Sequence record: PP239276.1
Reading direction: 5' to 3' (one strand)
From: Escherichia phage BME3
Length of the DNA: 64,000 nucleotides
Every line of letters begins with the position of its first letter. Position 1 is the stretch's first letter. This document shows positions 35,252-37,737 of this stretch, one piece after another. A program made the translations under genes and the position numbers. The notes below the pieces were generated by a model. It did not search any database. It saw only the letters and a program-made list of their open reading frames with translations, and was not told the DNA's origin.

Positions 35252-35620
35252 ATGAGGGTCACACGTTACGTTAGAAGTGAAACAATAGATGGAGGCATAA
35301 TGTATGCTTTCTACGATGATAAAACTTTTTGTTCTGCGTTCTATGAAGAAGACTTGTCTACGGAATGGCAACAAATCATCTTCTTACTTGACATTTTGAA
35401 AAGAAGAGATAACTTTGAAGGTATTGAGTGGACAGCGGGAAGCAAAGTTATCGTTGCAGGTTTAAGCAAACATGAATTGCTTGACTTAGACTGTAAACTT
35501 TGTAATTATCAATTCTCAAAACGTTTACCATTAGAAAGACAGTTAGGAGTTGAGATTCATGTTGACTTGGGCGATGGAGTATCCTATACTCTCAACAATC
35601 ATAGTGCTGACATTAATTAG
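35252..35620 (+). CDS. hypothetical early protein
   Basis: 122-aa ORF with AGGAGGG RBS, first gene of the plus-strand block. Confidence 0.45.
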   Translation: MRVTRYVRSETIDGGIMYAFYDDKTFCSAFYEEDLSTEWQQIIFLLDILKRRDNFEGIEWTAGSKVIVAGLSKHELLDLDCKLCNYQFSKRLPLERQLGVEIHVDLGDGVSYTLNNHSADIN

Positions 35621-35686
35621 TGGAATCACAAAGTGCGTCACAAGCATTTGCGATTGTTTAACACATTTTAAACAAAGGAAAAATAA

Positions 35687-35884
35687 ATGAATCAAACTAT
35701 GCAAACAATCTATAGAGTCATCCTTGGTGAGTTCCATGTTGTTAAGTCAACATTGAATTATGAAGAAGCTAAAGAGAATTTCTTGCTATGGGTTGAAGCC
35801 TTCTCTGAAGTTGAAAAGGTAAGTTACAATTGTGTAACTTTAACTGCTGATCACGTACCTGTATTGGAGTTTATTAAGAAATGA
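35687..35884 (+). CDS. hypothetical early protein
   Basis: 65-aa ORF. Confidence 0.35.
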   Translation: MNQTMQTIYRVILGEFHVVKSTLNYEEAKENFLLWVEAFSEVEKVSYNCVTLTADHVPVLEFIKK

Positions 35885-36120
35885 AAAAAGAAATTTTAAC
35901 TGATGTAACATATTCTTGTATTAGCAAAGGCGGTTTATATCGTGTAGTTGGTTTTCCTAAACCAGCGGGTGTATCTAAAGTATTTGATCCTGTTGTGATC
36001 TACGAAGATGTAAGGACTGGTCAACAGTATTGGCGATTCCAGCAAGATTTCTTACACCGCATGGAGGTTGTTGATGGCGAAAACACCGAAGAAGCGATCC
36101 GTAACAAAGCGCGCATCTAA
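35881..36120 (+). CDS. hypothetical early protein
   Basis: 79-aa ORF, ATGA overlap with upstream gene. Confidence 0.35.
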   Translation: MKKEILTDVTYSCISKGGLYRVVGFPKPAGVSKVFDPVVIYEDVRTGQQYWRFQQDFLHRMEVVDGENTEEAIRNKARI

Positions 36121-36409
36121 AGATGGGGCGGCAAAAGCCGCTCCTAAGAAACAAAAATTTGACACAGAGGCTTTTGTCTTTGATACTCCAATAGAAAAGA
36201 TAGAAGAAGCTCTTGCTAAATTTGAAGCACGTGATGCAGATCCTATGGCAGATCCTTTCACAGAAGATGAATTGTACTGGTTTGGCTGGTGGGTTTTGAA
36301 TCTACCAGAAGCTAAAAAACGAGGAATGAAGTCAGTTCCTATTTGCGCAAAAGAGTCGGCTGTGTTAGGTTTATACGAGAAGCCTAAAAGAAGGAGCAAA
36401 AAGAAATGA
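36074..36409 (+). CDS. hypothetical basic protein (Lys/Ala-rich N-terminus)
   Basis: ATG after GGAGG RBS; N-terminus KKRSVTKRASKDGAAKAAPKKQK suggests nucleic-acid binding. Confidence 0.35.
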   Translation: MAKTPKKRSVTKRASKDGAAKAAPKKQKFDTEAFVFDTPIEKIEEALAKFEARDADPMADPFTEDELYWFGWWVLNLPEAKKRGMKSVPICAKESAVLGLYEKPKRRSKKK

Positions 36410-36684
36410 GAAAAACTTATCTGAAGTGTTTGTCTGTTGTGCAAAATGAATGGTATTCAGGTTTGCTGACAGCAGGTAAGAAATATGAAGTGCTCAATAA
36501 ACCAGGGGCAAGATTTTCATTAATTAAGAACGACGAAGGCACTGAAATGCTTATTTCAGTTGCAGATTCTGTGTATGGCACTTTTGAGTTGGTCTATGAA
36601 TATGTACCAATTATTCTTGAATACAGCGGTACAAACAAGCCTTACACAGCTTTAGATGTGATCAACAACAAAAGGAATAAGTAA
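36406..36684 (+). CDS. hypothetical protein
   Basis: 92-aa ORF. Confidence 0.35.
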   Translation: MRKTYLKCLSVVQNEWYSGLLTAGKKYEVLNKPGARFSLIKNDEGTEMLISVADSVYGTFELVYEYVPIILEYSGTNKPYTALDVINNKRNK

Positions 36685-36875
36685 TGTTTCTTATTTATTC
36701 AGGTAAAGCCAAATACATGCAAGGTGTAAAGCGTGTAGAAGTAGTAGATACTGTAACTATAGGAAAATCCTTTATTCTTTATTTGTTTTATATCAATGGA
36801 GAAAGATTTGCTGTTTCTAAGAAGTTGGTAGATAATGGTAAAACTTGGAAAGAAGAGAAACAGGAAGGGGGTTGA
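36684..36875 (+). CDS. hypothetical protein
   Basis: 63-aa ORF. Confidence 0.3.
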   Translation: MFLIYSGKAKYMQGVKRVEVVDTVTIGKSFILYLFYINGERFAVSKKLVDNGKTWKEEKQEGG

Positions 36876-37219
36876 TAGTGGCTAAAATTCTTTGGTTAGA
36901 CGATTTAAGAGATCCTAAAGATTATGGTTATGAGGATGCCATTTGGTTAAAATCTTTTGGGGATTGGTTATCTTTTGTTTCAGATGAAGATAATTTCAAT
37001 AATATCTCAGAGATACACTTCGATAATGATCTTGGAGAAGATCAGGAAGGATATCATGCATTCTTAGACGTAGAATGTATGTTGTATGCGGGTGAATGGG
37101 ATGCTCTTAAAACTATCTATGTCCATACATCAAACCCTTCTGCTGCTGGTAAATATATGTTAGCTAAGGAAAATTTTATTTCATCTTATGGTGTTGAAAT
37201 TAAGCGTGTTAACTATTAA
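36845..37219 (+). CDS. hypothetical protein with receiver-like motifs (start uncertain)
   Basis: KILWLDDLRDP and IHFDNDLGED resemble the paired acidic strands of CheY-like receiver folds; an alternative GTG start lies about 33 nt downstream. Confidence 0.3.
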   Translation: MERRETGRGLIVAKILWLDDLRDPKDYGYEDAIWLKSFGDWLSFVSDEDNFNNISEIHFDNDLGEDQEGYHAFLDVECMLYAGEWDALKTIYVHTSNPSAAGKYMLAKENFISSYGVEIKRVNY

Positions 37220-37377
37220 GTAGGTATTATGCATTACTCAGTTTGGTCAGAGCAAGAAGAGGATGAAGGGCGTTTTATCTATAAAGAGGAAGAAAACTGT
37301 AACGATACGAGTAATGATCTTTTACTTCCTGATTACAGTTTTTTCGCTGATAGATTAAAAGAGTACGGAGAAAATTG

Positions 37378-37737
37378 ATGTGCGCTACTAATCAACATGA
37401 TATTTGTTACCAACCTCTTACTTGGCTTGGTGAGGATCACTATGCTCAACGTGTTATAGTCTGCGCTGCGAATAAGTATATTCTCAATAATGGCGAAGAG
37501 TTAATTATTCCTTGTGTTAGGCATGCAAATCCTGTACTATCTGCACAACTTAATGTTTTAAAAGATGCAGGATTGATTGATAAACTGTTTTGCTTACCTG
37601 ATAATCAAGGGTTTATTGATCAGTATTATAACTGGTGGAGTCGCAAAGATGCTTATATCATTGCAGATAACGCCAAACAAATTAACTACGAAAGAAATGG
37701 TCACAACAGTGAACTATTCAGCGAGGGATTATACTAA
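37378..37737 (+). CDS. hypothetical protein
   Basis: About 119-aa ORF. Confidence 0.35.
   Translation: MCATNQHDICYQPLTWLGEDHYAQRVIVCAANKYILNNGEELIIPCVRHANPVLSAQLNVLKDAGLIDKLFCLPDNQGFIDQYYNWWSRKDAYIIADNAKQINYERNGHNSELFSEGLY

Follow-up and report, generated by a model that had tools for sequence, protein, structure and literature searches.

Gene content and boundaries of the block

Nine small genes are encoded on the plus strand at positions 35252-37737 of the window, i.e., the whole analysed stretch of 64,000 nucleotides from Escherichia phage BME3, a phi92-like Justusliebigvirus (Table 1). They correspond to gp106A, 105, 104, 103, 102, 101, 100, 099 and 098 of phage phi92 (NC_023693; Justusliebigvirus, Stephanstirmvirinae), the region 34800-38300 being 98.7 % identical to phi92 at the nucleotide level. 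All nine ORFs, their order and their overlaps are unchanged between the two phages, which differ here in a few amino-acid substitutions only; for gp106A and gp099, proteins of phage BME3 match exactly. In the phi92 annotation, the genes of this block are hypothetical, except for a note on gp104 ('DUF1653-like fold'). The first-pass annotation had placed the block correctly, given that the first gene on the plus strand begins with an ATG at 35252 and the final stop codon ends at 37737, but had counted eight ORFs, whereas nine annotated and conserved ORFs are present. Its description of mostly overlapping ORFs with good ribosome-binding sites agrees with junctions of −47 to +9 nt from gp105 onward and with AGGAG-like motifs before most starts. 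Non-coding sequence accounts for 77 of 2486 nt.

Homologues of all nine ORFs are present in phage phAPEC8 (43–82 % amino-acid identity). The pairwise comparisons (pN 0.11–0.38, pS 0.53–0.92) correspond to dN/dS ratios of 0.08–0.23, i.e., to purifying selection. Owing to the tight packing, the ribosome-binding sites and this purifying selection, the nine ORFs are real genes and more than chance ORFs. Their products are small and soluble, without membrane segments. Scans of the nine ORFs against Pfam, NCBIfam, PHROGs and PADLOC yielded cREC (gp100) as sole functional match, and each of the nine matched zero families of PADLOC-DB (models of defence proteins) at E ≤ 0.1. Structural matching of two predicted structures from the block gave nothing informative.

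Table 1 Features of the block, its control region and the adjacent RNA-repair genes
Feature	Position	Strand	Remarks
Divergent intergenic control region	34842..35251	.	Between PRPP synthetase gene (minus) and gp106A (plus)
gp106A homologue	35252..35620	+	122 aa, pI 4.8 (acidic); phrog_14390; Justusliebigvirus and Phapecoctavirus only
gp105 homologue	35687..35884	+	ORFan, 65 aa; phrog_15683
gp104 homologue	35881..36120	+	79 aa; phrog_12584
gp103 homologue	36074..36409	+	111 aa, pI 9.7; labelled 'transposase-like' in databases
gp102 homologue	36406..36684	+	ORFan, 92 aa; phrog_10169
gp101 homologue	36684..36875	+	ORFan, basic, 63 aa; phrog_15376
gp100 homologue	36878..37219	+	cREC domain protein, 113 aa, GTG start; PF20274
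gp099 homologue	37229..37378	+	ORFan, 49 aa, pI 4.1; phrog_18323; between cREC and Arn.3-like gene
gp098 homologue	37378..37737	+	119 aa, T4 Arn.3/T4_Y16D (PF26092); labelled 'anti-restriction nuclease' in databases
gp097 homologue	37737..38288	+	Calcineurin-like metallophosphoesterase, candidate 3'-end healing enzyme; phrog_547
gp096 homologue	38290..39222	+	T4 Rnl1-type RNA ligase; PF09511 RNA_lig_T4_1
gp095 homologue	39223..39627	+	Small P-loop kinase, candidate polynucleotide 5'-kinase; PF13671 AAA_33

Control region and transcription

The block follows an AT-rich control region of 410 bp. Minus-strand genes stop at 34841 and the GC skew flips its sign at ~35 kb, in line with the earlier view that these are the first plus-strand genes. 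The facing minus arm encodes NAMPT, PRPP synthetase and 16 tRNA genes, which is taken as a counter-defence setting.

Weak sigma70-like sites are located in the control region at 34909-34881 (minus) and 34986-35014 (plus). Since the sigma70 promoter scan returned 21 promoter-like sites versus 20.6 expected, i.e., no better than shuffled sequence, promoters are not callable. Two further blocks (35063-35104 and 35189-35201) are unique and conserved in phAPEC8; as neither is repeated elsewhere in the window, a phage-specific promoter motif was rejected. An Rfam scan of 34700-37800 gave no match, and a GC-rich intergenic hairpin folded no better than shuffles (z −1.2). A sequence scan of the plus strand between 35252 and 40300 detected no terminator-like sites. 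The nine genes probably form one polycistronic unit that runs on into RNA-repair, DNA-ligase and nucleotide-metabolism genes; both co-transcription and timing of the block are inferred here. By their position, promoter-proximal in the rightward arm, the genes are candidates for early expression. No transcriptome was found in the literature for phi92-, rV5- or phAPEC8-type phages, and the arn cluster of phage T2 has been described as middle, not early.

Lineage-restricted ORFs

Six of the nine ORFs are restricted to few lineages. The gp106A product shares 43 % identity with phAPEC8_00139 (dN/dS 0.23), and the start of this alignment at residue 5 supports the long start; no Pfam, NCBIfam, PADLOC or PDB match was obtained. 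Relative to phAPEC8, gp105 is 54 % identical (pN 0.27 vs pS 0.83) and gp102 65 % (pN 0.22 vs pS 0.92), the latter yielding no match in a sequence search against PDB. Homologues of gp101 are present in phAPEC8 (74 %) and Klebsiella phage 05F01 (56 %), with dN/dS ratios of 0.09–0.22. The very acidic gp099 (14 Asp+Glu) is 76 % identical to phAPEC8_00129 (dN/dS 0.08).

For gp104, homologues were found in phAPEC8 (76 %) and phage 05F01 (51 %). Residues 16-63 align with positions 7-52 of 62 of the Pfam profile DUF1653 (PF07866) in a sub-threshold match (E 0.077, 13.8 bits, gathering score 23.5), and gp104 is possibly DUF1653-like. The same label is carried by some database records as well as by the phi92 note. 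Overall, the six ORFans are lineage-restricted accessory proteins and plausibly act as host-interaction or counter-defence factors.

The basic protein gp103

The ORF with a Lys/Ala-rich basic N-terminus, correctly recognised in the first-pass annotation, is gp103. In its product, ~75 aa form a conserved core, which is preceded by a variable tail rich in Lys, Ala and Pro and followed by a basic one. An exhaustive profile search recovered 28 family representatives (79–133 aa), exclusively from phages, besides two long and probably spurious outliers. A function as transposase was rejected, given that no transposase/integrase domain is present and the family consists of small proteins; Pfam, NCBIfam and PHROGs provided no functional match. 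A marginal PDB match of the gp103 profile to ribosomal protein S6 (E ~0.04) was judged to be noise, because the secondary structure disagrees with the gp103 model. With its polycationic tails, gp103 probably binds nucleic acid. Members of the gp103 family adjoin repair genes in related phages, and the rV5 homologue is located 5 kb from them; this linkage could represent inherited gene order.

An alternative is that the small ORFs, or some of them, function in phage DNA replication or nucleotide metabolism and not in host conflict, with gp103, e.g., as a DNA-binding accessory factor of the replication module next to it. Indeed, the array runs on into genes for DNA ligase, a MazG-like pyrophosphohydrolase and an RdgC-like protein and also holds those for a polymerase exonuclease subunit, thymidine kinase and ribonucleotide reductase; the tails of gp103 and its retention where Rnl1 was lost fit this possibility as well. 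However, none of the small ORFs is homologous to any replication protein, and the six ORFans are missing from the sister subfamily, even though it shares the replication genes. A role of this kind is accordingly regarded as rather improbable.

gp100 and the adjacent RNA-repair genes

The gp100 protein matches cREC_REC (PF20274) with E 1.1e-13 and 52.1 bits (gathering score 27), residues 4-92 covering profile positions 2-81 of 88. This phosphoesterase-type domain contradicts the initial impression that the block holds no recognisable enzymatic motifs. The receiver-like motifs ILWLDD and IHFDNDL had been read correctly and represent residues 4-9 and 46-52 of gp100; they do not point to signalling, but are a mark of the cREC family, a predicted phosphoesterase never paired with histidine kinases. 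Known cREC contexts are RNA-repair or NAD-ADPr genes, and the domain was predicted to resolve cyclic phosphates (Iyer et al. 2022 PMC9503650; Iyer et al. 2021 PMC7824862). The acidic site typical of receivers, i.e., two Asp residues behind strand 1 and a further Asp behind strand 3, is retained in gp100 as D8-D9 and D49/D51. These residues as well as T84, S85 and K92 do not vary among five homologues from five phage genera (represented by Justusliebigvirus, Phapecoctavirus, Klebsiella phage 05F01, Mydovirus and Vequintavirus). From its family membership, gp100 is predicted to be a cyclic-phosphate phosphoesterase, i.e., an RNA-end-processing enzyme. A sequence search of gp100 against PDB gave no match, and the literature searched yielded no experiments on cREC.

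The genomic context agrees with this prediction: RNA-repair genes (phosphoesterase, Rnl1, kinase) begin two genes downstream of gp100, and cREC homologues adjoin Rnl1 and kinase genes in phages rV5, Mydo, 4MG and FBKp34. The abutting genes encode (i) gp097, matching phrog_547 'phosphoesterase' (E 5e-55) and, under the gathering score of 27, Pfam Metallophos_2 (E 3e-4, 21 bits), with DxH, GD, GNHD and GHxH motifs in its translation, (ii) the Rnl1-family ligase gp096 (PF09511; E 2.3e-14, 54 bits, gathering score 28.3), and (iii) the kinase gp095 (PF13671 AAA_33; E 1.8e-10, 41.7 bits, gathering score 27), the P-loop of which (GVSGAGKST) is readable in the translation. Though located outside of 35252-37737, gp097 is functionally contiguous with the block.

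Together, gp100, gp097, gp096 and gp095 most likely constitute a heal-and-seal RNA-repair cassette. After cleavage by anticodon nucleases of the host, tRNA would carry 2',3'-cyclic-phosphate and 5'-OH ends; cREC and/or the metallophosphoesterase would open and remove the cyclic phosphate, the gp095 kinase would phosphorylate the 5' end, and Rnl1 (gp096) would reseal the tRNA, thereby rescuing translation. Gene reality, family memberships and synteny are observed here, whereas every biochemical step of this model is proposed. The RNA-repair neighbourhood was recovered in rV5, Mydo, 4MG, FBKp34 and phiA009. In phAPEC8 and Klebsiella phage 05F01, cREC, gp103 and gp098 are kept while Rnl1 and the kinase are gone from the locus; the three proteins are therefore not strictly ligase-dependent.

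gp098, a member of the Arn.3/T4_Y16D family

The gp098 protein is homologous to Arn.3 of the T-even phage RB32 (BLASTP E 3e-30, 45 % identity). A protein 98 % identical to gp098 carries a precomputed PF26092 match, and all 20 columns invariant among 79 diverse family members are present in gp098. The invariant polar residues suggest that gp098 is an enzyme or a specific ligand binder. Its predicted fold is without solved relative. Among PDB sequences, gp098 obtained non-significant matches only (best E 0.12), and the Arn.3 family profile had no match in PDB. The family comprises ~2,200 phage protein clusters, across which R25, N32, R48-H49, Q77-G78-F79, D81, R89, S115-E116 and Y119 are invariant.

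In T-even phages, the gene order is motA-arn.4-arn.3-arn.2-arn.1-arn, and in T2 one transcript carries both arn.3 and the anti-McrBC gene arn. A single mention of arn.3 was found in the literature, as gene of unknown function. The identity of 45 % extends over the C-terminal 110 aa of T-even Arn.3 (Y16D_BPT4), whose N-terminal extension of ~45 aa is missing from gp098. Neighbours are MotA and Arn in the T-even phages, whereas cREC and the phosphoesterase are encoded beside gp098. For T-even arn.4 and for the small ORF next to arn.3, no match to cREC and no significant match to any other Pfam family was obtained, and by eye this small ORF is unlike gp099 in sequence. Thus, the run of cREC, small ORF and Arn.3 is not shared with T-even phages. 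Across six further lineages, Arn.3 neighbourhoods revealed no consistent partner.

Since no local alignment between gp098 and RB32 Arn was obtained at E ≤ 100, an identity of gp098 with this McrBC inhibitor was rejected; being a homologue of the neighbouring arn.3, gp098 received the name 'anti-restriction nuclease' by carry-over from the locus name. The corresponding explanation, that the database labels for gp103 (transposase-like) and gp098 (anti-restriction nuclease) are right, draws on product names in several GenBank records and nothing else. It conflicts with the lack of any Pfam/NCBIfam match or transposase domain in gp103, with the dissimilarity of gp098 to Arn, and with the literature, which assigns no known function to arn.1 to arn.4. 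Both labels are already refuted at the homology level and deserve virtually no credence.

Weak similarities raise the alternative that gp098 has diverged from E2-like proteins, or else cooperates with or antagonises bacterial ubiquitin-like conjugation systems (Bub, Bil, CBASS-Cap2): RB32 Arn.3 matches Prok-E2_B weakly (E 0.006), this being the most frequent sub-threshold family (12 of 79 members), and in Ackermannviridae a BubE/DUF6527 gene (E 1e-12), BubE being the peptidase of Bub operons, directly precedes the homologue. However, every Prok-E2_B match is under the gathering score and none was obtained for gp098 itself, the family profile retrieves no sequence from PDB, Cys residues vary across the Arn.3 family, and the adjacency to BubE is confined to one lineage, being absent from T-even phages and two other contexts. 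An assignment of gp098 to the prokaryotic E2 proteins (Prok-E2_B/UBC fold) was rejected for want of a family-level match and of fold support, and the E2-related explanation as a whole is very unlikely.

Function and significance of the block

The first-pass annotation had pointed to early genes for host takeover or anti-immunity; applied to the whole block, this would mean that each gene inhibits some function of the host or one of its defence systems. Several properties agree with such a role: the genes are promoter-proximal and encode small, soluble products; the six ORFans occur in no more than one or two genera, a pattern typical of fast-evolving accessory genes; gp099 is a polyanion of 49 aa with a composition seen in DNA-mimic inhibitors; gp100 is contiguous with the RNA-repair cassette; and the T-even homologue of gp098 is part of the arn transcript. 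On the other hand, none of the nine ORFs (0/9) is homologous to any PADLOC defence-system model, the six ORFans show conservation only, gp100 is a predicted repair-pathway enzyme and not an inhibitor, and gp103 and gp098 are 60–80 % identical under strong constraint, unlike rapidly evolving inhibitors. The proposal is hence retained in part, and in its general form it is possible, though not favoured.

Instead, we consider the block to be a promoter-proximal mosaic of accessory genes of the rightward array, including gp100 as part of the RNA-repair cassette, and not one system (probability about 0.7). One may further speculate that the conserved run of gp100, gp099 and gp098, possibly with gp103, forms an unrecognised counter-defence module in which gp098 would represent a new enzyme class, with either damaged RNA ends or an immune signalling nucleotide as its target. 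The odds are clearly against such a module; if true, it would provide a function for the long-unassigned arn.3 of T-even phages.

The finding is largely ordinary, given that the genes were already annotated and the repair neighbourhood was already described. The result amounts to a new annotation of an already published phage genome; it corrects two misleading names spreading through GenBank ('transposase-like', 'anti-restriction nuclease') and places gp100 in a predicted, previously described RNA-repair pathway. Arn.3/T4_Y16D is among the more widespread uncharacterised families of large virulent phages, including the T-even phages, and both cREC and Arn.3/T4_Y16D are present in the genetically tractable BASEL phages Bas60-62. 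A function assigned to cREC or Arn.3 would extend to hundreds of therapeutic-candidate coliphages.

Comparison with known RNA-repair systems

According to the published prediction for rV5- and Mydo-type phages, the partners of cREC are MazG, Sir2, a nucleotide kinase, a calcineurin-like phosphoesterase and a tRNA ligase of the T4 type (PMC9503650, PMC7824862). Here, cREC, a T4-like Rnl1, a small kinase and a calcineurin-like phosphoesterase are likewise clustered, with the MazG-like pyrophosphohydrolase encoded further downstream. The arrangement differs in that cREC directly follows the ligase in rV5/Mydo-type phages, whereas it is located upstream of the phosphoesterase in the present phage, where gp099, gp098 and gp097 stand between cREC and ligase. 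The Sir2 partner of the rV5, Mydo, 4MG and FBKp34 cassettes is absent: tblastn with the Sir2 proteins of rV5, Mydo and FBKp34 detected none in the 64-kb window, nor does the phi92 annotation contain one at 25-51 kb. Affiliation with the sirtuin-centred, NAD-dependent RNA repair system of the rV5/Mydo type (Iyer 2022) was rejected for lack of a Sir2 gene. Homologues of NadR, PnuC, NADAR and BubE were not detected in the window either.

The classical counterpart is phage T4. Its tRNA repair by Pnkp and Rnl1 counters the anticodon nuclease PrrC; to our knowledge, no target nuclease is known for the phi92-type phage group. By analogy with T4 Pnkp/Rnl1, the cassette may counter host anticodon nucleases. 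Common to both are an Rnl1-family ligase, a 5'-kinase and a 3'-end-healing activity, encoded by a virulent coliphage with tRNA genes of its own. In contrast to T4, kinase and phosphatase reside on separate small proteins in the present phage, and a metallophosphoesterase replaces the HAD domain and is accompanied by an extra cREC protein.

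Gene content and coding potential of the block

A megablast search of 50,697 phage records with positions 34800-38300 revealed 98.7 % identity to phage phi92 at 100 % coverage, and dozens of further Justusliebigvirus isolates match the same stretch. The block of small genes on the plus strand spans exactly 35252-37737, as proposed in the first-pass annotation, but the phi92 annotation assigns to it nine CDSs (gp106A to gp098, with gp106B as an alternative internal start of gp106A) rather than the eight counted originally; next in that annotation come a phosphoesterase (gp097), gp096 and an 'ATPase' (gp095). 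Packing, ribosome-binding sites and position hold as described at first sight: from gp105 onwards, neighbouring genes overlap by up to 47 nt or are at most 9 nt apart (77 of the 2486 nt are non-coding), an AGGAG-like sequence precedes most starts, and these are the first plus-strand genes after a strand switch, with minus-strand genes stopping at 34841 and GC skew flipping at ~35 kb. The Lys/Ala-rich tail and the motifs ILWLDD and IHFDNDL were also correctly read and belong to gp103 and gp100, respectively.

A homologue of each of the nine ORFs is encoded by phAPEC8, a member of the sister genus Phapecoctavirus (amino-acid identity 43-82 %). Between the two phages, non-synonymous divergence is 0.11-0.38, as compared to a near-saturated synonymous divergence of 0.53-0.92 (dN/dS 0.08-0.23, where computable). 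Based on these homologues and the low ratio of non-synonymous to synonymous change, the nine ORFs are genuine protein-coding genes. An exact-sequence look-up retrieved all seven queried proteins (gp100 and gp098 were outside the query set) from public collections, in each case as hypothetical; phage BME3 has gp106A and gp099 in identical form, and relatives of block proteins are carried by the BASEL phages Bas60-62. Hydrophobic stretches in the nine proteins are all too short to cross a membrane. Several GenBank entries under the name 'Campylobacter phage' (host C. jejuni; MG065639, MG065645, MG065656, MG065689 and others) share 98 % identity with this E. coli phage type and look like mislabelled or contaminant assemblies.

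Outside Justusliebigvirus, Phapecoctavirus and Klebsiella phage 05F01, only gp103, gp100 and (within Stephanstirmvirinae) gp098 are kept. The other six ORFs (gp106A, gp105, gp104, gp102, gp101 and gp099) are lineage-restricted, and their only matches are to PHROG families without an assigned function; gp104 has a sub-threshold match to DUF1653, and gp099 is a polyanion of 49 residues.

Positions and assignments of the more widely conserved proteins of the block
Protein	Position	Strand	Assignment
gp103	36074-36409	+	pI 9.7; no Pfam match
gp100	36878-37219	+	PF20274 (cREC), E 1.1e-13, far over gathering score
gp098	37378-37737	+	Arn.3 homologue, PF26092 relatives

Control region

Two blocks of the divergent intergenic region are kept in phAPEC8, at 35056-35104 (CTCGCTGCGCTCG...TAGGGTAGCATACT) and 35189-35201 (AGGTAAGGTGATT), and neither is repeated elsewhere in the window. 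The former coincides in part with a GC-rich hairpin and, after it, a run of T, an unusual feature in a control region; the hairpin folds with a z-score of only -1.2. Rfam elements were absent from the region, and a sigma70 scan yielded sites no more numerous than in shuffled sequence. The top match (TTGACT-17-TATACT, 10/12; 35562-35590) is located within the 3'-terminal part of gp106A, 97 nt ahead of gp105 and just before a 66-nt gap, the sole sizeable one in the block. It may represent a putative internal promoter, albeit one statistically the same as chance. Early timing of the block is a proposal from its position, and the searchable literature contained no transcriptome for this phage group.

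gp100 and the predicted RNA-repair genes downstream

The cyclic-phosphate processing receiver-like (cREC) assignment of gp100 is accompanied by invariance of the receiver-type acidic residues D8, D9, D49 and D51, as well as of T84, S85 and K92, among homologues from five phage genera. Proteins of this family are predicted to resolve 2',3'-cyclic phosphates on RNA ends or ADP-ribose 1'',2''-cyclic phosphate, and were never found together with histidine kinases (PMC9503650, PMC7824862). Both studies call the family experimentally uncharacterised, and no later experimental work on cREC was found in the literature.

Downstream of the block, gp096 is an Rnl1-type RNA ligase (PF09511, 54 bits) and gp095 a small AAA_33 P-loop kinase, both over gathering threshold, while gp097 is a calcineurin-like metallophosphoesterase (phrog_547, E 5e-55) with readable motifs and a Pfam score below threshold. 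The three genes adjoin, and a terminator scan revealed no plus-strand terminator-like site between 35252 and 40300. Taken together, the most fitting reading of gp100 is as a component of a predicted heal-and-seal RNA-repair cassette, with T4 Pnkp/Rnl1 as its analogue. The T4 system counters the PrrC anticodon nuclease. The kinase gene is followed by three consecutive, very acidic small proteins at 39637-40382 (gp094, pI 4.05, coiled-coil-like; gp093, pI 4.05; gp092, pI 4.2); the phi92 name 'hol-like chemotaxis' for gp094 looks unfounded.

The facing minus arm (28518-31395 and 32143-34841) encodes first 16 tRNA genes, then nicotinamide phosphoribosyltransferase (NAMPT) and PRPP synthetase. Thus, an arm for NAD salvage and tRNA supply stands back-to-back with one for RNA repair, a gene content that fits a counter-defence neighbourhood. 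The suggestion that the small ORFs are typical of host-takeover or anti-immunity genes finds partial support, chiefly from gp100 and its repair partners.

gp103

The protein consists of an N-terminal Lys/Ala/Pro-rich tail of variable length, a conserved core (~75 residues) and, at the C-terminus, a second, basic tail. It is present in 341 phage records; when 1.84 billion representatives were searched exhaustively with a profile, only 28 proteins were retrieved, 26 of them 79-133 aa long and two probably spurious long outliers. Neither a Pfam match nor the transposase domain implied by the label 'transposase-like' was detected in gp103. Ribosomal protein S6 was dismissed as a relative, with marginal matches (E ~0.04) and a predicted secondary structure that does not fit. 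In Mydo, 4MG and, at 35 % identity, the distant Aeromonas phage phiA009, the genes for phosphoesterase, Rnl1 and kinase follow directly on gp103; in rV5, gp103 lies 5 kb from the ligase. This position before repair genes is the sole functional hint and may reflect inherited gene order. From its polycationic tails, gp103 would be expected to bind nucleic acid.

gp098 and the Arn.3/T4_Y16D family

A tblastn search with gp098 retrieved homologues from 1,535 phage records, among them T-even phages, Ackermannviridae and jumbo Serratia phages. The database label 'anti-restriction nuclease' is rejected: gp098 aligns with Arn.3 of RB32 (45 % identity, E 3e-30), in contrast to no similarity at all with Arn, so the name was inherited from the locus. 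PF26092 (T4_Y16D) is present in close relatives. A family profile search yielded 2,196 clusters; among the matches listed (120 clusters), lengths are 111-203 aa and PF26092 is the sole family. Across 79 diverse members, 20 columns are invariant, including R25, N32, R48-H49, Q77-G78-F79, D81, R89, S115-E116 and Y119, a pattern pointing to catalysis or to a specifically bound ligand. AlphaFold2 yielded a confident model of gp098 (pLDDT 84, pTM 0.75), and independent BFVD models of relatives agree with it (TM 0.7-0.8).

A tie to ubiquitin-like (E2) systems could be seen in sub-threshold Prok-E2_B matches of RB32 Arn.3 and 12 of the 79 relatives, and in Ackermannviridae carrying BubE/DUF6527, a peptidase of bacterial ubiquitination-like (Bub) operons, directly upstream of the gp098 homologue. 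However, gp098 itself yields no Prok-E2_B match and no detectable E2 fold, cysteines are not invariant in the family, and BubE adjoins in one lineage only, rendering such a tie unlikely. The BubE genes concerned (Taipeivirus loci L010:3054-3776 and L012:3683-4405) are of interest in their own right as phage-borne. In an uncultured phage lineage (L014:4001-5915), genes for MazG and DNA ligase lie upstream of a T4_Y16D homologue that stands five genes away from a NADAR domain gene, again a setting with an NAD/ADP-ribose flavour for the family.

Comparison with related phages

Syntenic loci of rV5, Mydo, 4MG, FBKp34, phAPEC8, 05F01 and phiA009 were compared by tblastn. In phAPEC8, a deletion joins phosphoesterase residues 1-62 to the C-terminus of gp093, with loss of ligase and kinase, yet cREC, gp099, gp098 and gp103 are retained. 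Rnl1 and kinase are absent from the 05F01 locus, too. Both cases thus weaken a strict ligase dependence of cREC, gp103 and gp098. The fused gene (phAPEC8_00127, L005:8352-8684; window counterpart 37737-40185) marks the loss of most of the phosphoesterase plus Rnl1, kinase and gp094. Its 62-aa phosphoesterase piece shares 95 % identity with its counterpart in the window, much more than the neighbouring genes do (43-82 %), suggesting that the two genera recently exchanged DNA at this spot.

Mydo, 4MG and FBKp34 have in common a minus arm with NAMPT and PRPP synthetase and a plus arm ordered small ORFs, gp103, phosphoesterase, Rnl1, cREC, kinase, Sir2, DNA ligase and MazG. At the head of its plus arm, Klebsiella phage FBKp34 additionally has a NadR-like ribosylnicotinamide kinase/NMN adenylyltransferase and a PnuC NMN transporter (L016:4157-6394); the slot right after the control region therefore takes differing NAD-related accessory genes across the group. 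Homologues of Sir2, NadR, PnuC, NADAR and BubE were absent from the 64-kb window.

In this well-known type of phage, the locus had been sequenced and annotated before, and a description of the cREC neighbourhood is likewise in print. For the 'medium-sized phages' with Escherichia phage V5 and Proteus phage Mydo as prototypes, this neighbourhood comprises a sirtuin, a T4-like tRNA ligase, cREC, a nucleotide kinase and MazG, sometimes joined by a calcineurin-like phosphoesterase (PMC9503650, PMC7824862). The remaining value lies in two testable questions: what cREC does biochemically, and what role the Arn.3/T4_Y16D family plays. Compared to the plan of Mydo, 4MG and FBKp34, the phi92 type differs in being devoid of Sir2 and in harbouring its cREC gene upstream of the phosphoesterase.
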